In this document: piece by piece, positions 11,753 to 35,128 of the stretch
How positions within the stretch are numbered: position 1 is the first letter of the stretch
Layout of the letters: the number at the start of each line of letters is the position of its first letter
Source: Patescibacteria group bacterium
Lineage (GTDB): Bacteria > Patescibacteriota > Minisyncoccia > Phycocordibacterales > JAACPR01
Direction: 5' to 3'
Assembly: GCA_022711495.1 (NCBI GenBank)
Contig: JAKLEX010000001.1
Location: forward strand, 87,058 to 151,057
Length of the DNA: 64,000 bases
Position numbers and translations under genes: made by a program
Notes under the pieces: generated by a model
Told to the model about the DNA's origin: nothing
Databases searched by the model: none
What the model saw: the letters and a program-made list of their open reading frames with translations, nothing else

Positions 11753-11982
11753 TTCTCTGATTCTGTCGTTGTCCCCGTTATTATTTCCTCGGCCGGAGTC
11801 TCCGTGGATTTTGGTTCAAACTTTTCTTTTACCTTCTTCAAATAATATGAGCCACCGAGAACGATCAGAACTATGATAATAATTGATCCGATGATTGGTC
11901 CGATTCTGCCGCCCCTGGCTCGGGGTTTTTGCGGGGCATTGTTTTGTTCGTTGCCTATTTCGTTATTTATTTGGGACTCCAT
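11749..11982 (-). CDS. Hypothetical small membrane protein (77 aa)
   Basis: Single TM IIGSIIIIVLIVLGG; its stop overlaps the tig start by 4 nt (ATGA), suggesting co-translation. Confidence 0.3.
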   Translation of the reverse strand: MESQINNEIGNEQNNAPQKPRARGGRIGPIIGSIIIIVLIVLGGSYYLKKVKEKFEPKSTETPAEEIITGTTTESEK

Positions 11983-12034
11983 ATTTTTAGATTAAAAACT
12001 GATTGGCTAATTATAACCGTTTTGATGCCAATAA

Positions 12035-13414: not shown

Positions 13415-15154
13415 TTGGAACAAATGTTCATCGATGAAAACAAACTTCAAGAGTTTATGATTGACTCTGGTATTGTTACCCGCGATATCATAGATCGCGC
13501 GGTGGAAATCGCTGGCAAGGATCGCGGCGTGGGGGACTATCTGGTTAGCGAAGGGATCATCTCCGAAGACGAGTTGAAACGGGTACAGGCCTACATATTG
13601 GGCATTCCTTTTATAAATGTTGGTGCGCAGAAAATTCCTCTTGAGGTTTTGAGTCTGATTCCCGAACCGATCGCTCGGAGAAGCAATATCGTGGCTTATA
13701 ACAAAGATTCCTCAGACCTGGAAGTGGCCATGCTTGATACCGATAATCTTAGCGCGATTGATTTCGTCAAAAAGAAAACGGGATTGAAAATTCTCCCAAG
13801 ACTTACTTCCACGGAGGGTATAAAAAAGGCCTTGGCCCAATATCAGAAAAGTCTGAAAGATGATTTTGGAGATATTATCCGACAGGAGACTAATAATCTG
13901 GCCGGTTCTGGCGTTGACGATCCGGAAAATTTGAAAAAAGTTGCCGGCGGATTACCGGTTGTTCGCATCGTTGATACTTTGTTGAAGCACGCTTTATTAC
14001 AAGGAGCGTCTGATATACACATTGAGCCGTCCGAAGACCAGGTAATCATCAGATACCGGGTTGATGGATTACTACATGACGCCATGACTTTGCCAAAAAA
14101 TAGTAGTTCGGCCATCGCCGCCCGTATCAAAGTTTTAGCCAGTCTTAGGTTGGATGAAAAACGTCTTCCGCAAGATGGCCGATTCAAAATGGAACTGGAA
14201 GGAGAAAAAGTTTCTTTCCGAGTTTCAATACTGCCGATTTATTACGGCGAAAAAATTGTCTTGCGCATTCTTCGGGAAGGAGCCGGCGGCTTTACTTTGG
14301 AATCGCTGGGTTTTCACGGCGATGGACTAGAAAGAATTCACCGGGCGCTTAAGCAAACTACGGGCATGGTTTTAACTACTGGCCCTACTGGCTCTGGAAA
14401 GACCACTACTTTGTATACTCTGTTGGATCTTTTGAATGTTCCGGACGTGAATATTTCCACCATTGAGGATCCTATTGAATATCAGATGCCCAGAATTAAT
14501 CAGACTCAAGTCAAACCGGACATTGGACTTTCTTTCGCCAACGGTCTGCGCGCACTGATTCGGCAGGACCCGGACATTATCATGGTCGGCGAGATCCGCG
14601 ACGGAGAGACGGCCGGTTTGGCGATAAACGCCGCGCTGACCGGGCACTTGGTTTTATCAACTCTTCACACCAACAGCGCCGCCGGCGCCATTCCAAGACT
14701 GATTGATATGGGCTCGCAGAGTTTCTTGCTGGTTTCCACTTTGAAAGTGATCGTTGCCCAGAGACTAGTCCGAAAACTTTCAATGAATCGCGAGAGATAT
14801 TTCTTGAAGAAAGCTGGAGTTGATCAGTTGGCAAAGATTGCCGACCTTGAGCGCTTACATCAAGTTTTAGTTGATGAAAAGATCATAGATAAAAACGTAT
14901 CGTGGACGCAAATCCCATTTTATCGACCGGTCGCGGCTTCTGGCGAAGACGGTTTTTCTGGTCGAATCGGTATTCATGAAATTTTAAACGTTTCTGAAAA
15001 CATTCGTGAGTTGATTATCAAGAACGCGACTTCCGATCAGATTGAAAAACAGGCTCGGATTGAAGGCATGCTTACGATGATTGAGGACGGCATCTACAAA
15101 GCGGTTTTGGGTCAGACAACCATAGAAGAAGTTCTTCGGGTTATTTCAGAGTAA
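13415..15154 (+). CDS. pilB: Type IV pilus assembly ATPase PilB (GspE family)
   Basis: N-terminal GSPII_E_N-like domain, Walker A GPTGSGKTTT, His box and Asp box; 579 aa; TTG start. Confidence 0.85.
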   Translation: MEQMFIDENKLQEFMIDSGIVTRDIIDRAVEIAGKDRGVGDYLVSEGIISEDELKRVQAYILGIPFINVGAQKIPLEVLSLIPEPIARRSNIVAYNKDSSDLEVAMLDTDNLSAIDFVKKKTGLKILPRLTSTEGIKKALAQYQKSLKDDFGDIIRQETNNLAGSGVDDPENLKKVAGGLPVVRIVDTLLKHALLQGASDIHIEPSEDQVIIRYRVDGLLHDAMTLPKNSSSAIAARIKVLASLRLDEKRLPQDGRFKMELEGEKVSFRVSILPIYYGEKIVLRILREGAGGFTLESLGFHGDGLERIHRALKQTTGMVLTTGPTGSGKTTTLYTLLDLLNVPDVNISTIEDPIEYQMPRINQTQVKPDIGLSFANGLRALIRQDPDIIMVGEIRDGETAGLAINAALTGHLVLSTLHTNSAAGAIPRLIDMGSQSFLLVSTLKVIVAQRLVRKLSMNRERYFLKKAGVDQLAKIADLERLHQVLVDEKIIDKNVSWTQIPFYRPVAASGEDGFSGRIGIHEILNVSENIRELIIKNATSDQIEKQARIEGMLTMIEDGIYKAVLGQTTIEEVLRVISE

Positions 15155-15163
15155 TTTATAAAT

Positions 15164-16384
15164 ATGGAAGTTGAATATAAATATCGGGCGATAAATGCTG
15201 ACAATGATTTAGTCACGGGCTTTAGAAGTGCTCCGGATGAAATATCTTTAAACCGGATTCTGCTCCAAGAGAGACTGAGACTTATTTCAGTTGAGCGCGT
15301 TTCTAGATTTCGCATTAAAAAACTCTTGGCTAAGTTGGGTGATTTCAGCCGAATTTCTGAACACGACAAAATAATTATGTACAGAAACCTTGGCTCAATG
15401 CTCAGCGCGGGATTGTCGTTGGCCAGAGCGATTTCTGTCATGTACCGCCAGACCACCAGTAAAGTTTTCCGAAAAATTCTTGGCAAGATTGATGAAAGCA
15501 TCAAGAAAGGTTCCAGTTTATCTGAAGCGTTCAGGCAATTTCCTCGGATTTTTAATCCGCTGGTTGTCTCCATGGTTAAGTCCGGCGAAGAAACTGGAAA
15601 CTTAGCCAAGTCTCTGCGCGTTACCGCCGAACAGATGGAGAAAACTTATCTGCTCAAGAAAAAAATACGCGGCGCGATGATTTATCCGGGCTTTATTATT
15701 CTGGCTATTTTTGTGGTTGGGATTTTTATGATGATTTATGTTGTTCCAGTTTTGACCGATACTTTTAACGAGCTGGAGATCGAGCTGCCAATGTCAACTC
15801 GGGCCATCATAAGTATCAGTGATTTCTTGCAAAATAATCTGTTGGGAGTCGCGGTGGGAATTTTGATTTTGGCCGCGCTGGTTATCTGGTTTTTGAGAAC
15901 TAAGTCTGGAAAGAGAGTCTTTGATTCCGCCCTGATTAAAGCCCCGGGCTTGTCTCCGATGATTAAGGAAATAAACTCCGCCAGGGTGGCCAGAGCCATG
16001 TCCTCGCTTCTTTCTGCCGGTGTGCCGGTGGTCAGGGCGTTAGAAATTTCTAAAGATATTGTCCAGAATTCTTACTACAAACAAGCTCTGGAAGGGGCGG
16101 CGAAAAATATTGGCGAGGGTCTTCTGATCTCCAAAATTTTTGCCGAAAATAAAGATCTTTTCCCGACTTTTGTTTCAGAGATGGTCTCGGTCGGGGAGGA
16201 AACTGGTGAACTCGGCGGGATGTTAAATGAGGTGGCGGTGTTTTATGAAGCAGAGGTTGATCAAAAAATAAAAAATATTTCCGCCATTATTGAACCAGCG
16301 CTGATGATTGTCGTTGGCGTGGCGGTCGGATTTTTTGCCCTGTCTATGATCGGTCCGATTTATAGTTTGTCCGAAGGCATATAA
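15164..16384 (+). CDS. pilC: Type IV pilus inner-membrane platform protein PilC (GspF family)
   Basis: Two repeated GspF domains, 3 TM segments, directly downstream of pilB. Confidence 0.8.
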   Translation: MEVEYKYRAINADNDLVTGFRSAPDEISLNRILLQERLRLISVERVSRFRIKKLLAKLGDFSRISEHDKIIMYRNLGSMLSAGLSLARAISVMYRQTTSKVFRKILGKIDESIKKGSSLSEAFRQFPRIFNPLVVSMVKSGEETGNLAKSLRVTAEQMEKTYLLKKKIRGAMIYPGFIILAIFVVGIFMMIYVVPVLTDTFNELEIELPMSTRAIISISDFLQNNLLGVAVGILILAALVIWFLRTKSGKRVFDSALIKAPGLSPMIKEINSARVARAMSSLLSAGVPVVRALEISKDIVQNSYYKQALEGAAKNIGEGLLISKIFAENKDLFPTFVSEMVSVGEETGELGGMLNEVAVFYEAEVDQKIKNISAIIEPALMIVVGVAVGFFALSMIGPIYSLSEGI

Positions 16385-21233: not shown

Positions 21234-22631
21234 TTATAAATTAATTGTCGCAAATTCTAATTTGGCGAAGGAATTTACGATAATCAATATATATTTCAGA
21301 AATAAATAAGGCGCGAATCCGACAAACATGCCCAAAGTCTGGTTTAAAAAAGCCAGAACTGCGGCCAGAAAACCAAGAAGCATGGTCAGAGGGATAAATT
21401 GCAAAGTGATGATGTTAACTATTGGTGCGACGACCGACAATTGACCGGTCATTTTCATAAGTAACGGCAAAACCGCTATTTGGGTTGAAAAAGTTGAAGT
21501 AGTAATCTCGCGCAGGTTGAATTTTTCGGGAATAAACCCGAATAATTTCTGAACGAATTTGTTTAAATTGATTAATCCTAAAGTTGCCGTAAAAGACAGC
21601 TGGAAAGAAGGGTCGTAAAACAAGATCATCGGATTAATTAGGATCATGACGGAACCGGCCAGAAACAGGGCGCGATTAACTGAATAAGTTCGGCCGGAAA
21701 TTCTGGCAGTTAAAGCCAGGAGAGTCATAATGGTTGATCTGATGACTGTCGCTCCGGATCCGACCATAACGCTGAATACGATAATTGAACTGGCGCCGAT
21801 AATTGCGGAAAGAAAACTTGGTAAAAAACTAAAGAATTTCAATATGGCCTCGGCGATAATTGTGACGTTATATCCGGACAAAACGATGATATGAACCAAC
21901 CCGACTTTTCTGAAATTATTTTCTAATTCCGCGCCAAGCGATCTCTTGGCGCCCAGTAGAATGCCGCCTAGCAATTCGGCTTCGGGAGAGGGGAGGATCT
22001 GATTAATTTTTTCTATAAATTTTTGTTTTATGCTGAAGATTAATCTCTCAAATTTAAGTTCGCCGTTAGACAGAATTTCTATTTTGGGATAATACATCAG
22101 TGAATAAACACCGTCCTTCGCCAAGAATTTTATGTAATCAAATTCTATTTCGTTTTCATTCAGAAAATTCTCTGGCAGATTTATTTTGCCGAAACTCTTA
22201 ATTTTTTGGCCGGTTAAAAGCTCCGGATAGTGGCCGGTGGTAATTATTACTTTTTCTTGAGTAAAATTCCGGCCGGAATCGTGCTCAATCATTTCTGTTT
22301 TGACGGTGATGCGGCTGTAAGACTCTCTTTTGTCTATTTCACCGACAATTTCTCCAACCAGAGATATTTTTTCTCCGGCGAACTCCGCTATTTCTGATTT
22401 ATGAAAAGATTTTCCACCGGACCAGATGGTCAAAGTTGAAAAGAAAAAAGCCAAAGCAACCAAGCCGGCGATTTTGTTTTTAAATAGTGCCCAAATCAAT
22501 AGGCAAATCAAAAATATCAAAAAAACCGCTAAATACAGCGGTATTATATAGGTATGGTGGTTGGAGAAATTAAAAACACTTGCGCCGATTATTACTCCGG
22601 TCGTGATTGAATGGATGAAAAACCGCGCCAC
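21234..22631 (-). CDS. comEC: ComEC/Rec2-family DNA-uptake channel protein (DUF4131 plus competence domain), lacking the C-terminal MBL domain
   Basis: Multi-pass membrane protein; competence-domain motif LPSPEAELLGGILLGAKRSLGAELENNFRKVGLVHIIVLSGYNV; ends without a metallo-beta-lactamase domain. Confidence 0.7.
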   Translation of the reverse strand: MARFFIHSITTGVIIGASVFNFSNHHTYIIPLYLAVFLIFLICLLIWALFKNKIAGLVALAFFFSTLTIWSGGKSFHKSEIAEFAGEKISLVGEIVGEIDKRESYSRITVKTEMIEHDSGRNFTQEKVIITTGHYPELLTGQKIKSFGKINLPENFLNENEIEFDYIKFLAKDGVYSLMYYPKIEILSNGELKFERLIFSIKQKFIEKINQILPSPEAELLGGILLGAKRSLGAELENNFRKVGLVHIIVLSGYNVTIIAEAILKFFSFLPSFLSAIIGASSIIVFSVMVGSGATVIRSTIMTLLALTARISGRTYSVNRALFLAGSVMILINPMILFYDPSFQLSFTATLGLINLNKFVQKLFGFIPEKFNLREITTSTFSTQIAVLPLLMKMTGQLSVVAPIVNIITLQFIPLTMLLGFLAAVLAFLNQTLGMFVGFAPYLFLKYILIIVNSFAKLEFATINL

Positions 22632-22690
22632 GATTCAATTGTGCGGGTTGTGACTATTTTTGGGAAACAGATTTTTTAGAAAGAATTTAT

Positions 22691-23392
22691 CTATCTTTTG
22701 ATGCCCCAGCTCCTAAGAATTTCCAGCTCATCTTCGGCGGAAATGGTTTTACGAAATTTTGCTCCAGCTTTTCCCTTGACTCGTGCTTCGCACTCGGACC
22801 AGTTTGTGTGTTTGGACAACTTTCCGTCAATCAGACTTAAATATGAATAAGCTCGGGCGTTTTTCCTCTCTCGTTCGGAGTTTTCCGACAAAGCTTCTTT
22901 CCCGGGTTCGGACAGGTCTATTTTGTAATTACCGATATCGCCCTTAAATAAGAGAACACGCTCTCCGTCGCCAAAACCAGTGGCGATTTCGTCGGCGCGG
23001 TTGTTTCCCGAGACCCCGGCGTGTCCTTTGACTTGAAGCCATTCTATCTCTCTGTCCACGGCTACTTTGTAAAGTTTCTGCCACAAATCTTTGTTTAGGA
23101 CGTCTTTCTTGTCTGAAGTTTTCCAGCCGTTTTTTAACCAGCCGTGCACCCACTTGGTGATTCCGTTTATCAAATATCCCGAATCGGTGAAAAGTCTGAT
23201 TTTGCTACCGACTGGAGTTTTCTTTATGGCGTTTAAGGCCGCCGATATTTCCATTCGGTTATTGGTTGTTTTGGTTTCGCCATCGCCGATTTCCTCAACG
23301 TTTTTTCCTTCAATTATTATGGCTCCATAACCGCCCGGTCCGGGATTACCGCGAGAAGCGCCGTCTGTGTAAATTAGAATTTTACTGATCAT
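22691..23392 (-). CDS. rnhA: Ribonuclease HI with a C-terminal RNA/DNA hybrid-binding (HBD) domain
   Basis: TDGASRGNPG...TNNRMEISA...FTDSGYLINGITKWVHGW...GHAGVSGNNRADEIA. C-terminal ~80 aa: NWSECEARVKGKAGAKFRKTISAEDELEIL resembles the HBD motif (W-x-EC-x-V-x-G-x-AKFK-F-x-eA-x-F). Confidence 0.8.
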   Translation of the reverse strand: MISKILIYTDGASRGNPGPGGYGAIIIEGKNVEEIGDGETKTTNNRMEISAALNAIKKTPVGSKIRLFTDSGYLINGITKWVHGWLKNGWKTSDKKDVLNKDLWQKLYKVAVDREIEWLQVKGHAGVSGNNRADEIATGFGDGERVLLFKGDIGNYKIDLSEPGKEALSENSERERKNARAYSYLSLIDGKLSKHTNWSECEARVKGKAGAKFRKTISAEDELEILRSWGIKR

Positions 23393-23480
23393 CTTGATTG
23401 TTGTCGTCTAGTATAGCAAATAAATTTTCGTTTTAGATAGATTTAATTTTTATTTTATCTTTCGGCGTTTTAATGCGGGC

Positions 23481-24359
23481 GTGATCTCTAAAGATTCATG
23501 GCGGCGGTTGCTGGCCTTTATTTTGTTCGTTACCCTTCTGGTCTTTGCCATATTTGTCTTTTCGATCTTGCGCCACGAACGTGCCAGAAAGTTTTTGACC
23601 GTGGCCTTTCTTGATGTCGGTCAGGGAGATTCAATATTTATTGAAACTCCCGGCGGTCGTCAGGTTTTGATTGACGGCGGGCCCACCAGTTCTGTGACAA
23701 GGCCGCTTTCAAAACTTTTGCCGTTTTACGACAGGGAAATTGATTTAATAATTTCTAGCCATTCAGACCTAGATCATATCGGCGGATTCCCGGAAATCTT
23801 CAAAAGATTTCAAGTGAAAAGATATGCGACTTCCGACAAAAAAGATGCCGCCGATCTCTATCTTGAGCTGGAAAAATTAAGCGAGAAAGAAAAGGCCGAC
23901 AGGATATTTTTGAAATCAGGCGACAGGATAATTTTAGACGGCGAGAGCAATATTTTTTTGGATGTTTTGTGGCCCGAGGACGCCGATTCCGCCAGCGACA
24001 ACAATGACGCGTCAATTGTGGTGCGCCTGGTTTTTGGGAGCGAAAGTTTTATTTTGACGGGTGACGCGTCGGCCTCGGTTGAATCTGAACTAATTTCTCG
24101 ACTGATTGATCCGGACTTTTTGCGCGCTAATGTTTTAAAAGTCGGGCATCACGGTTCCAAAACTTCAACTAGTCAGAGCTTTCTTGATCTGGTCAACCCT
24201 GAATATGCCGTCATCTCCGTAGGTCTGGATAACAAGTTTGGTCATCCGGACGTGGAAACTGTAAGTTTGTTAATTGATAAAAATATAAAGATTTTTCAAA
24301 CAATAGATTCTGGCTCAATTATATTCGAGACAGACGGGAAGTCTCTTTGGGTTAAGTAA
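23481..24359 (+). CDS. Stand-alone ComEC-type metallo-beta-lactamase domain protein with an N-terminal TM anchor
   Basis: VAFLDVGQGDSIFIETPGGRQVLIDGGP ... SHSDLDHIGG ... KVGHHGS matches the MBL domain normally fused to the ComEC C-terminus. Confidence 0.7.
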   Translation: MISKDSWRRLLAFILFVTLLVFAIFVFSILRHERARKFLTVAFLDVGQGDSIFIETPGGRQVLIDGGPTSSVTRPLSKLLPFYDREIDLIISSHSDLDHIGGFPEIFKRFQVKRYATSDKKDAADLYLELEKLSEKEKADRIFLKSGDRIILDGESNIFLDVLWPEDADSASDNNDASIVVRLVFGSESFILTGDASASVESELISRLIDPDFLRANVLKVGHHGSKTSTSQSFLDLVNPEYAVISVGLDNKFGHPDVETVSLLIDKNIKIFQTIDSGSIIFETDGKSLWVK

Positions 24360-24362
24360 AAT

Positions 24363-24605
24363 TTAGATAAGGCCAGCTTTTTTTAGAACTTTGTAAGCCC
24401 CCCGTTTGGTGATGGTTTTTAAGCCCTTAGCTGAAACATTTATGCTAACGCTTTTGTTGAGTTCTGGCACAAAAATTCTTTTCTTTTGCATGTTGGCGTA
24501 GCGCCTTTTCATGCCGCCGGGATTAAATTGAGTAGCACGCGTACGATTGGAATATCGCCCGCTGACCAGAGATGATTTTTTTGTGATCGCGCAAACTTTT
24601 GCCAT
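24363..24605 (-). CDS. rpmB: 50S ribosomal protein L28
   Basis: MAKVCAITKKSSLVSG...RRFLPNL-like segment (KRIFVPELNKSVSINVSAKGLKTI). Confidence 0.75.
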   Translation of the reverse strand: MAKVCAITKKSSLVSGRYSNRTRATQFNPGGMKRRYANMQKKRIFVPELNKSVSINVSAKGLKTITKRGAYKVLKKAGLI

Positions 24606-24665
24606 GTTCTAGATTTGTGCGTGTCATGCTATCATGTCTATACAATTTTGCAATACTGATATCGT

Positions 24666-25283
24666 ATGGACGGACAAATTATTTTCAGCGTTATCATCTT
24701 GATTTTATCCGTGATGATCCATGAAGTTTCTCACGGTTACGCGGCCTTATATTTGGGCGATGTCACGGCTAAATACGCCGGTCGGCTTACGCTTAATCCG
24801 ATTAAACATATTGACCCCATCGGCTCTATTATCTTGCCTCTAGTTTTCGTTATGATGAATGCCGGAATTGTTTTGGGTTGGGCCAAGCCGGTTCCGTATA
24901 ATCCTTATAATTTAAGAAATCAGAGATGGGGCGAACTGATGGTGGCTCTAGCCGGACCGTTGGCGAATTTTATTTTGGCCATTGTCTTTGGTTTGTTGGT
25001 GCGTTTCGCGCTTCCCCTTGGTTTGCCGATAATGTTTGTCCGGCTGTCTGTCTCCGTTGTTTTGATTAATTTGGTTTTGGCGATTTTTAATTTAATACCG
25101 ATTCCGCCGTTAGACGGCTCAAAAATTCTTTTTACTCTTTTGCCGATGGAAAACGTGTTGAAAATCCGTTCTGTCTTTGAGCGATATGGTCTTTTCCTTG
25201 TTTTATTTCTTGCCTTTTTTATCTGGCAACTAATTCTGCCAGCCGTGTATTTCTTGGCTCAAGTGATTACGGGGCTTAATTAA
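24666..25283 (+). CDS. Site-2 protease family zinc metalloprotease (peptidase M50, SpoIVFB-like)
   Basis: HExxH embedded in a TM helix (MIHEVSHGYAA), a second motif NLIPIPPLDG, multi-pass membrane protein. Confidence 0.6.
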   Translation: MDGQIIFSVIILILSVMIHEVSHGYAALYLGDVTAKYAGRLTLNPIKHIDPIGSIILPLVFVMMNAGIVLGWAKPVPYNPYNLRNQRWGELMVALAGPLANFILAIVFGLLVRFALPLGLPIMFVRLSVSVVLINLVLAIFNLIPIPPLDGSKILFTLLPMENVLKIRSVFERYGLFLVLFLAFFIWQLILPAVYFLAQVITGLN

Positions 25284-25346
25284 TCCAAAACCACCCTTCG
25301 TCCACCTTGCATTCCAAGCTCTCATATAGTAGAGTACTTTGCACTT

Positions 25347-25760
25347 ATGCCGACAATTAACCAATTGGTAAAGAAAAAGCGTAAAAAAACCGCTAGAAAA
25401 TCTAAAGCGGTCGTTTTAACTCGTGGTTTCAATACCCGTGAAAACAAGCCGACTTATTACATGTCCCCATTTAAAAGAGGCGTCTGCACAAAAGTTACGA
25501 CAAAAACTCCTAGAAAACCGAACTCTGCCATTAGAAAAATCGCGCGTGTGCGTTTAACAAACGGCGCCGAGATCACGGCCTACATTCCGGGCATGGGACA
25601 TAATTTACAGGAGCACTCGGTTGTTTTAGTTCGTGGCGGTCGCGTGAAAGATGTCAACCTAAAATACACGATTGTTCGAGGTGTTTTGGATGCCGAAGGA
25701 GTTCAAACTCGTCGCAAAGGCCGCAGTCAATACGGCATGAAAAAACCTAAGGCCGAATAA
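25347..25760 (+). CDS. rpsL: 30S ribosomal protein S12
   Basis: [14 protein letters not shown]...[16 protein letters not shown]...[18 protein letters not shown]. Confidence 0.95.
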
Positions 25761-25774
25761 TTTCAAAACTATTT

Positions 25775-26245
25775 ATGCGTAAACCAGTAAGAAAACGAAA
25801 TGTCGTAAAGCCGGATCTCAAATATAATTCGGTCAAAGTCGCCAAGTTCATAAATCATTTGATGCACGATGGCAAAAAGAGCGTGGCCCAAAAAGTGTTT
25901 TACGACGCCATGGATCTTGTCAAAGAAAAAGCCAAAGTGGAAGACCCGATGGAAACTTTTGAATTGGCTTTAAAAAATGTTGCCCCGATGATGGAAGTCC
26001 GTTCTCGCCGAGTCGGTGGTGCCAACTATCAGGTACCCGTAGAAGTTCGCATGGAGAGAAGGCAATTTTTAGCCATGTCTTGGATTTTGGAATCGGCACG
26101 ATCAAAAAAGGGCCAACCAATGAGAATAAAACTGGCCGAGGAAATAATCTTGGCTAGCAAAAACGAAGGAGAGGCTTACAAGAAGCGAGAAAATGTTCAC
26201 AAAATGGCCGAGGCCAACAAGGCCTTCGCGCATTTCGCTTGGTAA
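25775..26245 (+). CDS. rpsG: 30S ribosomal protein S7
   Basis: 156 aa immediately after rpsL; MRKPVRKR...VEVRSRRVGGANYQVPVEV. Confidence 0.95.
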   Translation: MRKPVRKRNVVKPDLKYNSVKVAKFINHLMHDGKKSVAQKVFYDAMDLVKEKAKVEDPMETFELALKNVAPMMEVRSRRVGGANYQVPVEVRMERRQFLAMSWILESARSKKGQPMRIKLAEEIILASKNEGEAYKKRENVHKMAEANKAFAHFAW

Positions 26246-26278
26246 TTTATTAATTTTTTATTTGAAATTTATTGAAAT

Positions 26279-28426
26279 ATGTCACGTGACTATCCACTAG
26301 AAAGAGTAAGAAATTTTGGAATCATCGCCCACATTGACGCCGGAAAAACTACAACTTCCGAAAGAGTTTTGTTTTATACTGGCGTTTCTCACAAAATCGG
26401 TGAAGTTCACGAAGGCACAGCTATCATGGATTGGATGGAGCAGGAGCGAGAGCGCGGAATTACTATTACGGCGGCGGCCACAACTTGTTTTTGGACCCCA
26501 ACTTATGAAGAAAACAAAGACTCCTCTAAAAAAATTCGATTCAATATTATTGATACCCCGGGCCACGTTGATTTCACCGCTGAAGTCGAGCGCTCTCTAA
26601 AAGTTCTGGACGGTGGGGTGGTGGTTTTTGATGGGGTTGCCGGTGTTGAGCCACAATCCGAAACGGTTTGGCGGCAGGCTGATAAATACAAGGTTCCGAG
26701 AATTTGTTTCATCAATAAACTAGATAGAACTGGGGCCAATTTTGAAAAATCGTACCAGTCTATTTTGAAGCGTCTTAATAGAAACGCCGTGCGAATGCAA
26801 ATTCCGTGGGGCACAGAGTCAAATGTCAATGGCGTTGTGGATCTATTGAAAATGAAACTCTACACTTTTGAGGGTGAAATGGGCAACAAGGTTGTTGAAA
26901 AAGAAATCCCAGAGGAATTAAAGGCCGACGCGGAAAAATATCATCATGAATTGATTGAAAAAATTTCCGAACTCGATGAAACCTTAACTGAGAAGTACTT
27001 AGAGGGGAAAGAGATTACTGTTCCAGAACTAAAAACGGCACTTAGAAGAGGAACAATAGACAACAAAATTGTTCCTGTTTTTACCGGTTCAGCTTTAAAA
27101 AATCTTGGTGTGCAACTTGTTCTCGATGGTGTGGTTGATTATCTCCCAAGTCCCGTTGATGTTCCACCGATAACTGGTATTGATCCAAAAACCGGTGAGG
27201 AAATTGAGAGGATTTCTTCCGATGAAGAACCTTTTGCTGCGCTAGCTTTTAAATTACAAACTGATCCTTACGTCGGTCAGCTGACGTATTTTAGAGTTTA
27301 TTCTGGAACGGTTTCTGCTGGTTCTTACATTTATAATTCTACAACTGGCGACAAAGAAAGACTTGGACGTGTTTTGCGAATGCACGCAAATGAAAGAGAA
27401 GAAGTTCAAACTGTTTACGCCGGAGAAATTGCGGCAGCGGTTGGTTTAAAAAATACAAAGACTTCTGATACTTTGTGTGATGAGGCGCACCCAATTGAAT
27501 TGCACCGAATTCAATTTGCTGAACCAGTTATTTCTATGAAGATTGAGCCGAAAACAAAAGCCGATCAAGAGAAAATGGGCATGGCCCTAAAGAGATTGTC
27601 CGACGAGGATCCGACTTTCAGAGTCACAAGCGATTCCGAAACTGGCGAAACGGTAATTTCTGGTATGGGTGAATTGCACCTAGAAATTATTGTTGATCGT
27701 ATGAAAAGGGAATTTAATGTTGCAGCAAATGTTGGCAAACCTCAGGTGGCATATCGAGAAACTATAACTGGTCAGGCAGAAGCAGAACACAAATACATCA
27801 AGCAATCAGGAGGTAAGGGTCAATATGGTCACGTTAAAATCCGAGTTCGTCCTTTGGATAAAACTGTTAAGGATGAAGATTTGCCAAAAAATATTAAGAG
27901 AAGTCCTGGATTTGAATTCGTCAACGCCATCAAGGGAGGAGCTATTCCGGCAGAATTTATTTCTCCTTGTGAAAAAGGATTTAAAGAAGCGATGGATCGA
28001 GGTATTGTTGCTGGATTCCGCATGACAGATGTTTCAGTCGAGCTTTTCGATGGTTCTTATCACGACGTTGACTCTTCAGAAATTGCGTTCAAATTGGCCG
28101 CTTCAATGGCTTTCAAAGAAGCCGCTCAAAAAGCCAAACCGGTTTTGCTTGAACCGATCATGAAAGTCGAGGTCATTACCCCAGAACAATTTACTGGCGA
28201 TGTTACAGGAAACCTAAGTTCGAAACGAGGACAAGTTGAGGGAATGGAAGACCGAGGAAACGGCCTAACGACGATTCACGCCAAAGTCCCATTATCAGAA
28301 TTGTTTGGTTACACCACGACTATTCGTTCTATGACTCAAGGACGAGCACAAGCCACGATAGAGCCGGATCACTATGAAATCGTGCCTAGTAATGTCGCCG
28401 AGGGCATTAAGGCCGGCAGAGCCTAA
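26279..28426 (+). CDS. fusA: Elongation factor G
   Basis: [22 protein letters not shown]1 motif, [13 protein letters not shown], five-domain length of 715 aa. Confidence 0.95.
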
Positions 28427-28454
28427 TTTCATCTAAAAGTTCTCCACAAACATC

Positions 28455-28484
28455 GGACAAGGGTATCACTTGTCCGTTTTTTGT
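28455..28484 (+). terminator. Intrinsic terminator after fusA
   Basis: GGACAAG-GGTATCA-CTTGTCC followed by GTTTTTTG. Confidence 0.6.
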
Positions 28485-28525
28485 TTTATAATTAGACATT
28501 ATTATAAGTTTTTTAAAATATTAAT

Positions 28526-31105
28526 ATGAATCTTAGAAAAATCTTGTCGTTAGTTTTTGTGCTGACGATGTTGCCGATGGCCGCCAGAGCGGACGATATG
28601 TCCGGCAGTCTAGAACTGACCGATTGTTTCTCCGACGGTCTATACAGATTTCAGAGCGTCCAAGTTAGCGCCGGACCAGAGAAAGCCGTCTATAATCCCG
28701 GCGAGTCCATAGAATTTGTTGGTAGCGTTATAAACGAAAATTTATACCCCGTTGTTGACGGTAATGTTTTTGTCAGAATAAGTAAGGTCAATGCCAATTC
28801 CGCGACAGTAGACACGGTTTGGCATGACGTCGTTGATGAGTTCATGGCGGTTTCTGACATCTCAATCAGCGATGCAGCAAGCCAACCAATCTCTTTCTCT
28901 TGGCAGGCGCCCGGCACAATTGGGGCGGGTGATTACCGAGCCGATTTCTTTTTCTCCGTTGATAAAAGATTTAACCTTGGAGGACTTCCTTTTACGAATG
29001 AGATCGTAATAGGAACATCTTATTTTGAAATTGCCGGCTCATCGGTCAGGCCGTTTGTCTTGGATAGAAATAGTACCAAGGTAAATGACCAAACATATCT
29101 ACATATTGGAGAGTGGCCAGATGTACCGGCTGATTCCGCGGTAGAAATTAGTCAGCCCCTAAAAAACTTGTCTAACAAAGAAATCTCTCTTGATGTTACT
29201 TATGATTTATATTATTGGGACTCTTTGAGAGATTCTGACAAATTAGATTCTCGTTCCGAAAAAGTTGTCGTTCCGGCAAATGGATCGGTTAATTTGTCGT
29301 ACACCATAGAAAAGGTCTCCGAGCCGGTGTACTATCTGAGAATTAAAGCGACAAATGCTGGACTCTCATCTATCGTTAACGTCAGAGTTGTCTCATCGCT
29401 TGTCGCCAAGTCCAGGATCAATTATCCCGCTCTCAATGTCTTTCCTCTCATAAAAGACCAAGAAGCTACGGCCTTCTCTTGCTTTCACATGACTTCATAT
29501 GCGACAGACACTGGCCGCATAGTTTTGACGGTTAGTGACGAGAACGATCGCGTTTTTTCTTCCGGAGAATACGCGGGAGAAATCAGTAGCCAAATGGACG
29601 CGGTTGCCATGAATTTCTCGCCAAACAAAAATATAAGCTTTGCGAAATTAAAAGCTGAGCTGTTTGATTCAAGCGGCAAGCTTGTTGATCAGTACGAAGC
29701 CGTTTATGATTGCGAAGAAATCGGTAGTGAAAGTTGCCGACAACTTGACCAAGAAACGGCGACAGCGGCCTTTAATTATCTGGAACTGATCTATGTTGTT
29801 CTGATAGTTTTGGTGCTTGTCTTGATATTTGTCCGCATAAGAAAAATCGACGCGAACTCTTGGTCAAGAAAGGCCTTATCTATTATCGCGATTATCTTGG
29901 TTCTAATTCTGGCTTATATTGTTGTAAGAGCGGTCGCGCTCAAAAGTGGCATATCAAGCGCCACGGCGGAAGTTGTCTCTGGCGATGGCCGAACAAAAAC
30001 CGAGACGAAGTCTACTCCTTATAAAGAAAAAGCCTTTACGGGAAACAGGTTGGTTGTTTACGGAAACTTAAATCTTACGCACACCGTGACACTGACCGGA
30101 GGCGATAGCCGAGACGACGGCGGCTTTGATTTGGACGATGGCGACTCCGTTGGAATAAATTGGAACCGAGGATGTAGTTTTACGGCAACTGGCGGCGCAT
30201 GGGATACGCCAGTCTGCGGATCTTCACAGACATTTCATTCCGGCGACCGGGGTCATGATGGTTGGATTAAATTCCTTAACGAATCACAGACAGCAACGAT
30301 AGTGTCCAGCAATCCGGAGGTCGTGTCATGTAGCGGCTCTAGTCCAAATTGGACGTGTACCGGTTTGGAGTCTGGTTATGCCGATATCAGTGTCCATATA
30401 GACCAAGATCTCTTCTATCCGGAAATGTGTGTTGAGTGGACGGCGCAAAATGGCACGGCGTGTGTCGAATGCACCTCTAATATTCAAGGTAAATATGAGA
30501 CGTGTAATGATCGTGGTTTGAATTTGACGGTTACAACTCCAAGCTATAATCCAACATGGCGTATATATGTTGGTAGTTCAGACGCATGCGGTCCGGCCGC
30601 CGGCGAGACTCTCTCTGATTCTGACTGGCCGCTAGATGAAGAAGATGCGTGTGCTTATGGCGAAATGGAAAATCCGGGCGATGATGGTGATACTTATTCT
30701 TGGAAATGCGGAGACGTTTCATGTTCGGCCAATAAAGATGATGGTGACGACGATGATCCAGAAGAACCTCCTTACGAACCGCATCATTTGTTATTAATCC
30801 CTGACGACGCGTCAGCCATATCGCCAAATATTGTTAACCCGGGCGAACAGTGTACTGTCAGTTGGGAAGTAGATAGTAGCCAAAACGGGTCCTGCACGAT
30901 TATAAATATCGCAGACCAAGTAGTCGGAAGCGCGTTTGACTATACTGCCGGCGGAGAAAATTCTTTTGAAGCGTTGGTGGATCCTCAAAATGAATATAGA
31001 ATCGTCTGCACCGACAGCGCACCAGCCGAGCCGGGAGGGGAACCGGAATCCGTTACTAGTACCGTTCTGCGCTGTATTTTGAATCCGAACGTTGTTGAGC
31101 AGTAA
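28526..31105 (+). CDS. Large predicted cell-surface protein (859 aa): signal peptide, N-terminal beta-rich domain, central two-helix TM hairpin, and a Cys/Asp-rich C-terminal domain
   Basis: Signal peptide MNLRKILSLVFVLTMLPMAARA; TM1 LELIYVVLIVLVLVLIFVRI and TM2 IIAIILVLILAYIVVRAVAL about 15 aa apart; C-terminal half has over 25 Cys, an acidic run DDGDDDDPEEP, and no recognisable enzyme motifs. Confidence 0.5.
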   Translation: MNLRKILSLVFVLTMLPMAARADDMSGSLELTDCFSDGLYRFQSVQVSAGPEKAVYNPGESIEFVGSVINENLYPVVDGNVFVRISKVNANSATVDTVWHDVVDEFMAVSDISISDAASQPISFSWQAPGTIGAGDYRADFFFSVDKRFNLGGLPFTNEIVIGTSYFEIAGSSVRPFVLDRNSTKVNDQTYLHIGEWPDVPADSAVEISQPLKNLSNKEISLDVTYDLYYWDSLRDSDKLDSRSEKVVVPANGSVNLSYTIEKVSEPVYYLRIKATNAGLSSIVNVRVVSSLVAKSRINYPALNVFPLIKDQEATAFSCFHMTSYATDTGRIVLTVSDENDRVFSSGEYAGEISSQMDAVAMNFSPNKNISFAKLKAELFDSSGKLVDQYEAVYDCEEIGSESCRQLDQETATAAFNYLELIYVVLIVLVLVLIFVRIRKIDANSWSRKALSIIAIILVLILAYIVVRAVALKSGISSATAEVVSGDGRTKTETKSTPYKEKAFTGNRLVVYGNLNLTHTVTLTGGDSRDDGGFDLDDGDSVGINWNRGCSFTATGGAWDTPVCGSSQTFHSGDRGHDGWIKFLNESQTATIVSSNPEVVSCSGSSPNWTCTGLESGYADISVHIDQDLFYPEMCVEWTAQNGTACVECTSNIQGKYETCNDRGLNLTVTTPSYNPTWRIYVGSSDACGPAAGETLSDSDWPLDEEDACAYGEMENPGDDGDTYSWKCGDVSCSANKDDGDDDDPEEPPYEPHHLLLIPDDASAISPNIVNPGEQCTVSWEVDSSQNGSCTIINIADQVVGSAFDYTAGGENSFEALVDPQNEYRIVCTDSAPAEPGGEPESVTSTVLRCILNPNVVEQ

Positions 31106-31382
31106 TTATTAAACAGTAATTATTGACAATTCCTCGGCCTTTGTTAAACTCGTCTTTGTAAGGCCGAAGAAGAGAGGCGCCGTCGCAATGTCGGCATAAG
31201 ACCTCTTCAGGTCGCGACGATTTTCCCGGTGATCTCTGAAAAGTTCACCCGAAAATCTTCAGCGAACTATATTAGATTAGAAATTGACCACGGCCTTGCG
31301 TGGTCTTTTTCTTTGGAAGACGCGAAGGCGCGTTTTCGGAGAAATAGATTAGGGTCTTAATTAATAGTGGCCAAATAAAAAT
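31106..31382 (+). promoter_or_regulatory. Putative L10 (rplJ) leader / autoregulatory 5'UTR with an attenuator-like hairpin at about 31286-31313
   Basis: 277-nt structured untranslated region directly upstream of rplJ; several stem-loops, including GACCACG-GCCTTG-CGTGGTC followed by TTTTTCTTT. Confidence 0.35.
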
Positions 31383-31877
31383 ATGGCTGTAACAAAAGAA
31401 CAAAAGAAAAAGATTCTTGAGAAGTTGAAAGATATCGTGGCCAAAGAATCCGTCGTCTTTGTTAATTTCCACGGAGTTCCTTCAGCGGAGGTCGTGAAGA
31501 TGCGAAAGAAATTTCGTGATCAAAAGGTCTCTCTGTATGTTGCCAAAAAAACTTTGGTAAAGAGGGCTTTGGAAGAAGCAAAGACTAAGATCGGGGGCGA
31601 TTCGCCGGAATTTGTCGGTGAGCTGGCTCTGGTTTATGGAGACGATCCAACTATCCCGGCTGGAGAGGTTTACACCTTTCAGAAAGATCTTAAAAATGCC
31701 GTTTCTATTTTGGGCGGTATTTTTGAAAAAAGATTTTTATCAAAAGCTGAGATGGAAGAAATTGCCAAGATTCCTGGTTACGAAACTCTCAAGGGCATGT
31801 TTGTCAACATAATTAATGCTCCTATTCAGGGCTTGGTTATGTCACTCAAAGCGATTGCTGATAAAAAGTCAGCTTAA
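31383..31877 (+). CDS. rplJ: 50S ribosomal protein L10
   Basis: MAVTKEQKKKILEKLKDI...VVFVNFHGVPSAEVVKMRKKFRD...; sits immediately upstream of rplL. Confidence 0.85.
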   Translation: MAVTKEQKKKILEKLKDIVAKESVVFVNFHGVPSAEVVKMRKKFRDQKVSLYVAKKTLVKRALEEAKTKIGGDSPEFVGELALVYGDDPTIPAGEVYTFQKDLKNAVSILGGIFEKRFLSKAEMEEIAKIPGYETLKGMFVNIINAPIQGLVMSLKAIADKKSA

Positions 31878-31901
31878 AATTATTTATTAATCTTTAACGA
31901 T

Positions 31902-32312
31902 ATGTCAGAAGAACAAAAAACAAGTACCGAAGAAGTCGTCGTTCCAGAGAAGTTCAAGAAGATTGTTGAATCTATTGAGACGATGAGCGTTCTGGATCTG
32001 AATGAACTGGTCAAGTTGCTTGAAAAGAAATTCGGAGTTAGTGCTGTGGCCGTGGCCGCTCCAGCCGCCGCTGGTGCCGCTGGTGCCGCTGAAGAAGAAA
32101 AATCCGAATTTACCGTTCACATAAAAGAAGCCGGTGCGCAAAAAATCGCCGTCATTAAAGTCGTAAAAGAAGCCGCTGGTCTTGGTCTGAAAGAGGCCAA
32201 AGATCTAGTAGAGGCCGCTCCAGCCGATGTCAAAACCGGTCTGAAGAAAGCCGACGCCGAAGACTTGAAGAAGAAACTTGAAGAAGCTGGTGCTAAGGTG
32301 GAGCTTAAATAA
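31902..32312 (+). CDS. rplL: 50S ribosomal protein L7/L12
   Basis: N-terminal dimerisation domain, Ala/Gly hinge [17 protein letters not shown]-terminal domain [24 protein letters not shown]. Confidence 0.9.
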
Positions 32313-32338
32313 GACTAAACAAAAACTCCAGAGCTTTA

Positions 32339-32407
32339 TTCGATCCAGTCCTCGTTTCCTTTCTCTGTCAATTTTCATTTGACAGAGAAAGACTGCGGGG
32401 GACCTCA
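32339..32407. repeat. Left copy of a ~68-nt inverted-repeat pair flanking tuf; contains an internal perfect 13-bp hairpin
   Basis: TTCGATCCAGTCCTCGTTTCCTTTCTCTGTCAATTTTCATTTGACAGAGAAAGACTGCGGGGGACCTC; its reverse complement matches 33950-34018 at about 90% identity. Confidence 0.8.
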
Positions 32408-32543
32408 AAAGCTCCGGAGTTTTTGTGTTTAGGTGAGGCTGCGCAAAGTCGACCGAGAGTAACGGCCCTGCTCGCTGGAGGGAGGAACGCGCGTCTCTAG
32501 GAAGTGTTTCTGGGGGTTCTATGTTTGTTTAGTCTTAACCCAT

Positions 32544-32573
32544 TGACACACTTTCTCGTTTTGTTACTATAAT
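32544..32573 (+). promoter_or_regulatory. Near-consensus sigma70-like promoter for tuf
   Basis: TTGACA-18 nt-TATAAT located about 125 nt upstream of the tuf ATG, inside the inverted-repeat-bounded segment. Confidence 0.5.
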
Positions 32574-32700
32574 TCTTACACAAAAGGGGCGCTTTTTGTT
32601 TGCGCCGCATATTGTGGGGACTATTTTTTACAAGACCGCTCTCGCGCTTTTGTAAGAGATAATCTTTTTATTAGGAGGTATTAATTACAAATAAATTATT

Positions 32701-33891
32701 ATGGCAGATTTTAATCGAACAAAGCCGCACGTTAACGTCGGCACCATCGGTCACGTTGACCATGGTAAAACGACTTTGACTTCTGGTATTTTGCACGTCT
32801 TGAAAATGGCGGGTAAAAATGCCACGGAGAAATCGGTTGACGATATTGACAAGTCGCCGGAAGAAAAAGCCCGAGGTATTACCATTTCCATTTCACACAT
32901 GGAATATGAGACGGACGCGCGCCACTATGCGCACGTTGACTGTCCTGGGCACGCCGACTTCATTAAGAACATGATTACTGGTGCCGCTCAAATGGACGGC
33001 GCTATTCTTGTGGTCGCTGCGCCGGACGGCGTGATGCCACAGACGAGAGAACACGTTCTCTTGGCTCGCCAAGTGGGTGTTCCAAAAATTATTGTCTTCT
33101 TGAACAAGGTTGATCTTGTTGATGATAAAGAGTTGGTTGATCTAGTTGAGGAAGAAGTTCGTGAATTACTTGAGAAGAATGGTTTTGACGGAAAGAATAC
33201 TCCGGTTATCCGGGGTTCTGGTCTAAAAGCCATCGAGGCTCAATCAATGGATGATTCTTATGCTAAAAGCATTATGGAATTAATGAATGCTTTGGATAGT
33301 TACATTCCTATTCCGGTCCGAGATCTTGATAAGCCTTTCTTGATGCCGGTTGAAGACATTTTCTCAATTGAAGGACGAGGAACTGTCGCTACTGGTCGTA
33401 TTGAAAGAGGAAAAGTCAAAATCGGACAGGAAGTTGAAATCGTCGGCATTAAGCCAACGCAAAAGACAACTGTCACTGGTATTGAAATGTTTAACAAGTC
33501 TTTGCAAGAAGGTCTTGCTGGAGACAATGCCGGAATTCTTCTTCGTGGATTGAAGAAAGAAGATGTCCACAGAGGACAAGTTTTGGCCGCTACTGGTTCA
33601 GTGACTCCTCACACGGAATTTACAGCAGAAGTGTATGTCTTGAAAAAAGAGGAAGGTGGACGACACACACCATTCTTTACTGGTTACAAGCCACAATTCT
33701 ACATCCGAACGACTGATGTGACGGGAGACGTCACTTTGGCTGCGGGTGTTGAAATGGTTATGCCTGGAGACACGGCGACCTTCACGGTTAAATTGGTTGC
33801 TCCAGTGGCCCTTGAAGATAAGCAGAGATTTGCCATTCGCGAGGGTGGTAAAACTGTCGGCGCCGGTGCGGTAACGAAGATTATCGCCTAG
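32701..33891 (+). CDS. tuf: Elongation factor Tu
   Basis: [34 protein letters not shown]; 396 aa. Confidence 0.95.
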
Positions 33892-33949
33892 CCGATTAAG
33901 CTCTTTTCAAAGATAGGTTATTCCGTTTAGTTCGCAACAATTAGTTTTT

Positions 33950-34018
33950 GAGATCCCCCCGCAGTCTTTTTCTGTCAAATGAAAATTGACAGAAAAAGGA
34001 GACGAGGATTGGATCGAA
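33950..34018. repeat. Right copy of the inverted-repeat pair flanking tuf
   Basis: GAGATCCCCCCGCAGTCTTTTTCTGTCAAATGAAAATTGACAGAAAAAGGAGACGAGGATTGGATCGAA; same internal hairpin TCTGTCAA-(7 nt)-TTGACAGA. Confidence 0.8.
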
Positions 34019-34081
34019 AAAACTGAATTGTGGAGAACTAAACGGAACCACTAGCTTTTGGAGAGATAATCAACTTCAAAT

Positions 34082-34423
34082 ATGGTTACCAAGAAGGCAA
34101 AACAAACAGAGGTAAGTAACGCTCGCCTTAGAATACGGGTCCGAGCTTACGAAAGTAAAATTCTTGATGCGTCGATAAGACAAATTGTCGACACGGCTTT
34201 ACGATTTGGCGCCACAGTGTCTGGGCCAATTCCATTGCCGACCGAGATCAAGAAATATACCGTCAACAGATCAGCGTTCGTCTACAAGGATGCGCGAGAG
34301 CAATTTGAGATGAGGGTCCACAAACGTCTAGTTGACATTCTAAATCCTGATGCTAAGCTAATCGAAGCTTTAACGAATTTGAGCTTACCGTCGGGCGTGA
34401 ACATTGATGTAAAAATGATTTAA
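34082..34423 (+). CDS. rpsJ: 30S ribosomal protein S10
   Basis: LRIRVRAYESKILD...GPIPLPTEIKKYTVNRSAFVYKDAREQFEMRVHKRLVDI. Confidence 0.9.
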   Translation: MVTKKAKQTEVSNARLRIRVRAYESKILDASIRQIVDTALRFGATVSGPIPLPTEIKKYTVNRSAFVYKDAREQFEMRVHKRLVDILNPDAKLIEALTNLSLPSGVNIDVKMI

Positions 34424-34513
34424 GTACAAGGACAAACGTCCCGCTGTACGCCAAAACCGTAATGTTCTAGAGACTTGCGGTTTTGGTTTTAGAGGAAGGA
34501 CGAGGGAAACAGC

Positions 34514-35128
34514 ATGAAAATAATTCTAGGAACAAAAGAAAAAATGACCCAGTTATTCGGAGCTGATGGCAAAATATATCCAGCCACGGTTATTAATGCT
34601 GGGCCGGTTGTGGTGACTCAGATAAAAACTCAAGCCGTTGATGGTTATGAGGCTGTTCAAGTCGGCTTTGGTGAAAAGAAAAGCCATAATATTAACAAAG
34701 CTGCGGCCGGTCACCTGAAAGATTTAGGTAACTTCCGATACTTGAGAGAGTTTAGAATCGCGCCGGGCCCAGAGATTAAGGTCGGTGCGAAAATAGATGC
34801 CACGGCTTTTGTTCCGGACGATAAAGTTCGACTGTCTTCAATCTCAAAGGGTAAGGGTTTTCAGGGCGTGGTGAAGAGACATGGATTTTCCGGCGGACCG
34901 AGAACTCACGGTCAGAAACACTCCGAACGAGAACCTGGTTCTATTGGTGGTCGAGGTCGCGCCGGAGGTCGTGTTTCTAAGGGTATGCGTATGGCCGGCC
35001 GGATGGGAGGCGACAGAGTGACGCTTCATGACGTTCAAGTGCTTCATGTTGATCCGGGCACTAATCAGATATACGTGAAAGGTGCTGTTCCTGGACGTCG
35101 TGGCACTTTAATTGAGATACAAGGCTAA
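34514..35128 (+). CDS. rplC: 50S ribosomal protein L3
   Basis: MKIILGTKEKMTQLF...GKGFQGVVKRHGFSGGPRTHGQ. Confidence 0.9.
   Translation: MKIILGTKEKMTQLFGADGKIYPATVINAGPVVVTQIKTQAVDGYEAVQVGFGEKKSHNINKAAAGHLKDLGNFRYLREFRIAPGPEIKVGAKIDATAFVPDDKVRLSSISKGKGFQGVVKRHGFSGGPRTHGQKHSEREPGSIGGRGRAGGRVSKGMRMAGRMGGDRVTLHDVQVLHVDPGTNQIYVKGAVPGRRGTLIEIQG

Follow-up and report, generated by a model that had tools for sequence, protein, structure and literature searches.

A candidate two-part surface protein encoded between fusA and rplJ in Patescibacteria

In the WxLIP proteins a signal peptide is followed by two Ig-like domains and a transmembrane (TM) helix, and their genes lie beside those of secreted WxL partners, in which a common C-terminal element is combined with variable host- or substrate-binding domains (PMC10599100). 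This WxLIP/WxL (Csc) system of Firmicutes may be regarded as the closest functional analogue of a protein from a Patescibacteria group bacterium (GenBank assembly GCA_022711495.1, contig JAKLEX010000001.1), which is encoded in a stretch of 64,000 nucleotides, hereafter the window (positions 87,058 to 151,057 of the forward strand). Its gene, here called the surface-protein gene, is located among translation genes. Life in attachment to other cells is the presumed habit of Patescibacteria, or the Candidate Phyla Radiation (CPR), whose envelope proteins are for the most part poorly understood. No description of this protein family was found in the literature, and the family is without a Pfam or NCBIfam model.

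The family is large. A search with the profile of its N-domain retrieved 1,183 or more clusters (50% identity), of which 802 scored below 1e-30, and among the top 150 family members about a quarter were 450-510 aa long and the others 850-1,700 aa. An earlier note, made from the letters of the window alone, had placed the protein in an episymbiotic CPR organism and proposed a check of related genomes. This check yielded many homologs, all from Patescibacteria-type metagenome-assembled genomes (MAGs), namely Paceibacterota, Moranbacteria/Moraniibacteriota, Niyogibacteria and Andersenbacteria, some of the binned MAGs bearing evidently generic labels. An identical protein (P0001), present on 11 contigs read, is attributed by NCBI to a Candidatus Paceibacterota MAG, in line with the CPR assignment. 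The protein of the window matched the local N-module profile with 576 bits (E 1e-174).

Split and fused forms of the protein

The two halves of this protein are encoded elsewhere by separate genes. The short-form homologs consist of a signal peptide, the N-domain, one C-terminal TM helix and a Lys/Arg tail, and in four loci (L001-L003 and L006) the gene downstream of the short form opens with a signal peptide of its own. These downstream split C genes carry the pattern ...F(T/N)A.GG.WDTP...S.N..(V/I).SCS...C, as does the C-domain of the fused protein, and a local profile of aa 482-655 matched the gene right after split N genes with E-values of 4e-29 and 3e-26. In 30 further species-representative loci, with pairing judged where the locus was of sufficient length, the N and C-core profiles were always found together, fused in about 17 and as adjacent genes, N followed by C, in about 13. 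Such obligate pairing through fission and fusion suggests that the two parts, A and B, act together. It also bears on the two closely spaced hydrophobic segments in the middle of the protein, which had been described as a helical-hairpin anchor. Since split N genes end in a TM helix with a K/R tail and split C genes begin with a signal peptide, these segments are better read as the scar of a gene fusion, in which the anchor of part A was joined to the signal sequence of part B.

On balance, and with moderate confidence, we favor the reading that the gene encodes a non-enzymatic, membrane-anchored, extracytoplasmic surface assembly, made as one precursor in which two genes that are separate elsewhere have been fused, with a role in adhesion or the envelope. 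Part A, composed of the signal peptide, three MG/Ig-like sandwiches and the TM anchor, would form a conserved stalk or scaffold. Part B would be exported through the second hydrophobic segment (TM2) as an internal signal sequence, and TM2 would either be cut by signal peptidase I at an AxA-like site or be retained, completing a hairpin with TM1. Part B itself would comprise a conserved beta-rich core, a lineage-variable region rich in disulfides or adhesin repeats, a terminal Ig-like domain and a tail, which might serve for docking. The two parts would stay associated at the surface, the stalk holding out the variable acidic module towards a target that could be the host, a substrate or the cell's own envelope. 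The features of the gene are as follows:

28526-31105, plus strand: coding sequence of the 859-aa precursor (stop codon 31103-31105), with P0001 known as an identical protein
28526-28591, plus strand: N-terminal signal peptide, aa 1-22 (MNLRKILSLVFVLTMLPMAARA, followed by DD), with an n-h-c layout and an A-x-A site, as read from the sequence
28592-29041, plus strand: predicted beta-sandwich D1, aa 23-172 (AF2 model, Foldseek matches to MG arrays, identity to homologs)
29045-29395, plus strand: predicted beta-sandwich D2, aa 174-290, with the YDLYYWDSL motif (AF2 model, Foldseek, mean identity 48%)
29405-29716, plus strand: predicted beta-sandwich D3, aa 294-397, with the INYPA, FSCFH and YDC motifs (AF2 model, mean identity 40%)
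29771-29833, plus strand: TM1, aa 416-436 (hydropathy), counterpart of the lone C-terminal anchor in the split-form N gene
29834-29872, plus strand: basic loop RIRKIDANSWSRK, aa 437-449, 13 residues, probably cytoplasmic by the positive-inside rule
29873-29941, plus strand: TM2, aa 450-472, counterpart of the N-terminal signal peptide in the split-form C gene
29960-29968, plus strand: A-T-A, aa 479-481, an AxA-like candidate signal peptidase I site, conserved as a site among fused homologs
29969-30490, plus strand: conserved C-core, aa 482-655 (AF2 pLDDT mostly 80-97, local profile matches)
30503-30736, plus strand: Cys-rich module, aa 660-737 (AF2 model and homolog comparison)
30737-30826, plus strand: acidic, Pro-rich linker (DDGDDDDPEEPPYEPHH...), aa 738-767 (pLDDT about 50)
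30827-31081, plus strand: terminal Ig-like domain, aa 768-852 (predicted beta strands, pLDDT 74-84)
31082-31102, plus strand: conserved C-terminal tail LNPNVVEQ-COOH, not followed by a TM segment (homolog C-termini)

Much of what the earlier note had said of the layout was borne out, i.e. the open reading frame (ORF) of 859 aa at 28526-31105 on the plus strand with an ATG start, the signal peptide (MNLRK, a hydrophobic core and ARA followed by DD), the N-domain of ~390 aa, the two close TM helices and the C-domain, here ~380 aa where the note had ~390. A hydrophobic N-terminal segment was present in all homologs. Hydropathy gave two 19-residue peaks, in aa 416-436 and aa 450-472, and a short helix links D3 to TM1. 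The loop RIRKIDANSWSRK between the peaks unites what in the split forms are the cytoplasmic tail of part A and the n-region of the signal sequence of part B. The composition of the C-domain had been overstated: in place of more than 25 cysteines it holds 16, and the whole protein 20. All of these are located in the ectodomains, in even numbers (4 in the N-domain, 16 in the C-domain). The poly-Asp run does exist, as an acidic DDGDDDD beginning at aa 738, whereas Asp is hardly a hallmark of the C-domain, with 9.8% against 8.1% in the N-domain. Net charges of -26 and -47 make the two ectodomains strongly acidic.

The topology is very probably N-domain out, loop in and C-domain out, because the split forms have their anchor in the N gene and a separate signal peptide in the C gene. 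The even Cys counts and the extracellular type of the predicted beta-sandwich folds likewise favor the claim that both large domains lie outside the cell. As for processing, nearly all fused homologs have a small-x-small site behind TM2 (VxA followed by E or Q, AEA followed by Y, AKA followed by Y, and similar), which makes cleavage by signal peptidase I behind TM2 plausible. In the protein of the window it would fall at A-T-A, giving two polypeptides from one precursor; a conserved E-(T/V)-V-S follows the site, here as E-V-V-S. In this subgroup ~14 residues, including Arg and Lys, lie between TM2 and A-T-A, and with so long a charged segment behind the hydrophobic core a TM2 hairpin that is left uncleaved is equally possible.

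In one locus (L006:9710-11442, and also L033) the split-form C gene is itself broken up into an ORF at 9710-10582 and another at 10717-11442, which carries the terminal Ig-like domain and an NWVEVNP tail. A frameshift, pseudogene formation or a faulty assembly could account for the break.

Conservation falls off along the protein. Mean identity to homologs is 52% in D1, the most conserved region, 48% in D2, 40% in D3, 27% in the C-core and about 22% in the remainder. The three sandwiches of the family N module carry, in the protein of the window, the motifs FFFSVGKKFNLGGLPF(T/S)NE, YDLYYWDSL, INYPA, FSCFH and YDC, and are followed by the TM segment; the D1 motif in full reads FFFSV(G/D)K(K/R)FNLGGLPF(T/S)NE. 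The family C part is represented by the C-core with GGxWDTP and SCSG..C and by a Glu-containing C-terminal tail. The Cys-rich module is the variable element, in homologs being expanded to many ~50-aa Cys repeats of variable number or swapped for PKD, CshA or SprB-type repeats. PKD_4 was detected in 9 of 42 long homologs, and CshA_repeat, SprB, Big_2, DUF4215 and Flg_new_2 were also present.

Predicted folds and their matches

The earlier note had recognized no enzymatic motifs, and sequence searches of Pfam, NCBIfam and the PDB came up without a significant match, both for the single protein and for the profiles. The structure modeling and Foldseek search that it had proposed likewise matched no enzyme or cytoplasmic family. 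The matches around aa 410-480 (Claudin_3, DUF4131, Wzy_C, EssA and others) were dismissed as noise from the hydrophobic segments. A motif scan of the sequence found no CxEQ thioester, N-terminal lipobox, pilin-type leader or RGD.

The AF2 model of aa 23-415, built on a 64-sequence alignment (pLDDT 95.1, pTM 0.91), consists of three all-beta sandwiches and a helix leading into TM1. In Foldseek searches against the PDB the N-domain matched MG-domain arrays, i.e. CD109, complement C3/C5, A2M/A2ML1, TEP1 and the alpha-2-macroglobulins of E. coli and Salmonella, with E-values of 4.5e-11 to 4e-9 and TM-scores of just 0.2-0.3. Pfam MG2 was matched below threshold in D1 of four homologs (P0031, P0046, P0050 and P0056), the protein of the window not being among them. 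These matches, with A2M, TEP and complement proteins at the top and bacterial A2Ms included, could point to a membrane-tethered protease trap or defence protein of A2M type. Tandem MG-type sandwiches gave the best structural match, and the bacterial A2Ms (ECAM/YfhM and Salmonella A2M) are likewise tethered to the membrane and extracytoplasmic. We nevertheless consider this reading very unlikely, as there are just three MG-like domains and no Pfam A2M-family model scored above threshold. The N ectodomain is ~390 aa long and ends in a TM helix, compared with ~1,500 aa or more and receptor-binding/MG8 domains in A2M; the remaining MG domains are missing, and the anchor is a TM helix where bacterial A2Ms have a lipobox. 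Membership in the A2M family proper was rejected, there being no CxEQ, no helical thioester domain (the models are all-beta) and no bait region.

WxL membership was rejected as well. Pfam WxL was unmatched in this protein, in 42 homologs and in the split C genes, and the dual W-x-L motif is absent, with a single chance WPL at aa 701. WxLIP_PGBD (DUF916, PF06030) was matched below threshold in D1 of P0034 and P0026 (22.2 bits in P0034, the cutoff being 27.3) and unmatched in the protein of the window, and no match to PF11797 (DUF3324) was found.

The C-domain (aa 481-859) was modeled by AF2 as a series of all-beta modules (pLDDT 81) with the last six residues disordered. The C-core appears to be built of long beta-hairpins with a GGxWDTPxCG motif and a Big_2-like module (SSNPxVxSCSG..C). 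Searched as a whole with Foldseek against PDB and BFVD, the C-domain gave only weak and generic matches of Big_2, Ig, FN3 and S-layer type. Other weak matches, to bunyavirus Gc and alphavirus E1, together with an order of ectodomain, TM, signal and ectodomain that resembles Gn/Gc or E2-6K-E1 polyproteins, raised the idea of a membrane-fusion or viral-glycoprotein-like polyprotein whose C-domain, following an internal signal peptide, would be like a class II fusogen. With match probabilities of 0.2-0.35 and a TM-score of about 0.15, which generic elongated beta-rich folds explain, and with a C-part that has no C-terminal TM anchor and no evidence of a fusion loop, we regard this as extremely improbable; a class II fusogen reading was dropped as unsupported on account of those probabilities.

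Tails, neighboring genes and expression

The C-terminal tail turned out to be shared beyond the family itself. Among the long homologs, 51 in number, the C-terminus is E-x-COOH in 35 (e.g. VVEQ or VIEI) and W-x-E-V-x-P in six, the Glu background being 4.4%, and the tail is predicted by AF2 to be disordered. Family members were also found beside proteins of a second type, here called N2 (L004:2237-5905, L005:5546-7915 and 10592-13252, and L006:11637-14372), which have a signal peptide, a ~400-aa beta domain, a TM pair with an AxA-like site and a Cys-repeat C-part. Their N-domain matched the N profile in hhalign with a probability of 92% (E 6e-7) and is, judging from this match, a remote paralog of the N-domain described here. 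The N2 proteins bear the same genome-specific C-terminal tail as the neighboring family members, and a Gly-rich protein (Gly_rich_2, L013:400-3468) with a different N-terminal architecture has the tail of its neighbor. As distantly related neighboring proteins of one genome carry it, the tail behaves like a shared tag. It may be a docking or sorting tag, with no match to any described C-terminal sorting signal. The C-terminal arrangement of LPXTG, TM segment and basic tail is absent, the protein ending in ...NPNVVEQ; the two loose matches are internal, one within the signal peptide (LPMAA, aa 16) and one within D1 (LPFTN, aa 154).

Two gene neighborhoods recur. In one, common to the window and to L004, L007, L011, L012, L014, L018, L021, L031 and L034, the gene stands immediately behind fusA and/or ahead of rplJ-rplL or tuf, the order in L034 being fusA-gene-tuf. 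In other loci the family gene is associated with type IV pilus (T4P) genes, either directly upstream of pilB-pilC (L013, L025 and L028), in greA-N-C-(N2)-pilM-pilN-pilO-like-pilB clusters (L001, L006 and L033), or near pilM/pilN (L029 and L040). In the window itself T4P genes are scattered, with PilB-like (579 aa) and PilC-like (406 aa) genes at 13415-16384, ~12 kb upstream, and pilin-like ORFs at 55416-56015 and 60214-61137 that have GFTL(I/L)E(L/M)L-type N-termini.

From these neighbors it could be argued that the protein is a T4P accessory, a beta-sandwich stalk with a partner that would scaffold, guide or dock the pilus where it crosses the wall or surface layer of cells that have no outer membrane, or present pilus-associated adhesins. 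Pilus-gene adjacency occurs in about 7 of roughly 27 non-redundant loci and the window holds pilB/pilC-like and pilin-like genes. Set against the adjacency are the window and about 10 other loci, which have fusA/rplJ/tuf and not T4P neighbors, and an N-terminus that is of Sec type, the class III leader (G followed by F/M-T-L-I-E) being absent. Moreover, the known core set of monoderm T4P is complete without such a component. T4P genes lie dispersed in these small genomes, and the loci are not independent of one another in phylogeny, so that the enrichment is no more than suggestive. A pilus role is also in keeping with the lack of PilQ in CPR (PMC6744442), yet taken together these points make it unlikely.

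At its own locus the gene is located as the earlier note had it, between fusA (26279-28426) and rplJ (31383-31877), in the order rpsL-rpsG-fusA-[surface-protein gene]-rplJ-rplL-tuf-rpsJ. Downstream of the fusA stop codon the terminator noted before was recovered at 28454-28476, listed here as a somewhat longer feature:

28454-28486, plus strand: intrinsic-terminator-like hairpin and T-run, with an 8-bp stem (5 GC pairs), a 7-nt loop and then TTTTTTGTTT

This element sets the surface-protein gene apart from fusA. The promoter-like region claimed upstream of the gene fared less well: the hexamers there match just 9 of 12 positions and are not enriched, six being found where 5.1 are expected in shuffled sequence. 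On the other side, rplJ has its own promoter-like TTGACA, conserved and 18 nt past the stop codon of the surface-protein gene, as well as a conserved and structured leader, and the surface-protein gene thereby looks like an independent unit.

The rplJ leader (31106-31382, 277 nt) is of interest in its own right. Its mean identity with L004, L011 and L012 is 76%, far above the conservation of the flanking surface-protein gene. The TTGACA in it is invariant, as is a terminator-like hairpin, GACCACGGCCTTGCGTGGTC, with a T-run at 31286-31305, and hairpins are conserved as well. No Rfam family was found for it at E <= 0.1, and none in 24000-35000. It is probably an autoregulatory L10/L12 attenuator of a type not in Rfam. 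In the str/S10 region of the window (26279-34423) the gene order is also unusual, fusA being separated from tuf by the surface-protein gene together with rplJ-rplL. Only the surface-protein gene separates them in L034, where rplJ-rplL are found further downstream. Further upstream, the stretch 21234-24359 includes a ComEC-like gene (DUF4131 and Competence, minus strand). A Lactamase_B-domain gene (23481-24359) is found near it, with an RNase H gene (22691-23392) in between, and the ComEC-like gene and the separate Lactamase_B-domain gene may form a split ComEC DNA-uptake module.

From the position among essential translation genes high, constitutive expression had been predicted, a claim to which codon usage gives no support. 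With the ribosomal and elongation factor genes of the window as reference set, the codon adaptation index (CAI) of the surface-protein gene was 0.64, the mean of 30 other window genes being 0.662 (sd 0.022) and that of the reference genes 0.704.

Expression also matters for the idea of a two-component S-layer-like lattice, in which part A would be a TM-anchored stalk and part B an outer canopy. Cryo-EM work has reportedly found S-layers on CPR cells. The adjacent or fused stalk and canopy genes, the all-beta multi-domain build and strong acidity of both parts, and the location of the gene among highly expressed translation genes would all suit such a lattice, as would Foldseek matches to EA1, SbsB and an in-situ pentameric S-layer protein (7ptp). 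These matches are weak (E of at least 2e-3, TM-score about 0.15) and generic for Ig-like arrays, the CAI is below the window average, the conservation of the N-domain is high relative to typical S-layer proteins, and there are several paralogs per genome with very different C-parts, all of which render the lattice distinctly unlikely. Its layout is shared with SlaB/SlaA of Sulfolobales and with TM-anchored archaeal S-layer glycoproteins, where a TM-anchored beta-sandwich stalk has a larger, beta-rich partner from an adjacent gene; unlike these, the protein has no coiled-coil stalk, and the likeness shown is one of layout, not of sequence or specific fold.

A broader proposal joins several of these threads, and we offer it tentatively, as rather unlikely. 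It envisages a Patescibacteria-specific display system in which TM-anchored MG-like stalks, from the family and from N2, would bind a number of secreted proteins rich in disulfides by way of a short, hitherto undescribed tag at their C-terminus (E-x-COOH or WxEVxP). The fused forms would be true bacterial polyproteins, cleaved at an internal signal peptide. Such an assembly could make up the CPR surface layer or the place at which T4P pass through it, and would then be central to episymbiotic attachment.

Weighing the reading and comparison with known systems

In favor of the membrane-anchored two-part assembly stand the split and fused forms, and the adhesion or envelope role is suggested by the architecture and by the adhesin-type repeats of homologs. 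MdbA-like oxidoreductase and VKOR, by which extracellular disulfides are formed, are over-represented in CPR genomes (PMC6744442), and this enrichment, together with the absence of PilQ, is consistent with disulfide-rich exported proteins and an unusual envelope.

Several points weigh against this reading. Surface exposure, cleavage, binding of A to B and adhesion are each inferred. The long charged segment before A-T-A is less like a classical c-region than that of Moranbacteria-type members, leaving cleavage uncertain in this protein. The high conservation of D1 would fit better with a conserved internal partner than with direct binding of the host by part A. With TM-scores of 0.2-0.3 only the domain type of the N-domain fits MG arrays, which makes it MG-like, as modeled, in its domains and not A2M-like in its overall arrangement. 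Codon usage is without any sign of very high expression despite the translation-gene neighbors, and the recurrent adjacency to T4P genes may point to another primary role.

If the model of an anchor with its partner is true, the tip of the D1 stalk, the AxA site and the tail would become targets for the study of surface building and host binding, a new family definition would be warranted, and thousands of hypothetical proteins could be annotated. If the protein is just another Ig-repeat adhesin, the value would mostly lie in improved annotation.

The large Ig-repeat adhesins of monoderms (Big_2, PKD, CshA, SprB; MSCRAMM-like) resemble the family in having Ig-like arrays that vary in number and type between lineages, and differ from it in that here an internal TM pair provides the anchor and the N-terminal module is highly conserved. 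The WxLIP/WxL system comes nearer. In the short forms of this family the anchor protein is analogous in architecture, with a signal peptide, beta-sandwiches and one C-terminal TM helix. In both systems the genes of anchor and partner are clustered, N and C-core being adjacent or fused in every judgeable locus, and several neighboring proteins share a common tail. Unlike WxLIP, the family has three sandwiches instead of two and belongs to Patescibacteria, fusion to the partner by way of a second TM/signal segment is frequent, and in place of a domain of ~150 aa it has a short tail peptide, E-x-COOH or WxEVxP. What is new here is the size of the family, the explanation of the hairpin by split and fused forms, the candidate internal cleavage, the shared tail and the two recurrent syntenies, in a surface-protein family of otherwise known general kinds, namely Ig-repeat surface proteins and anchor-plus-partner complexes.

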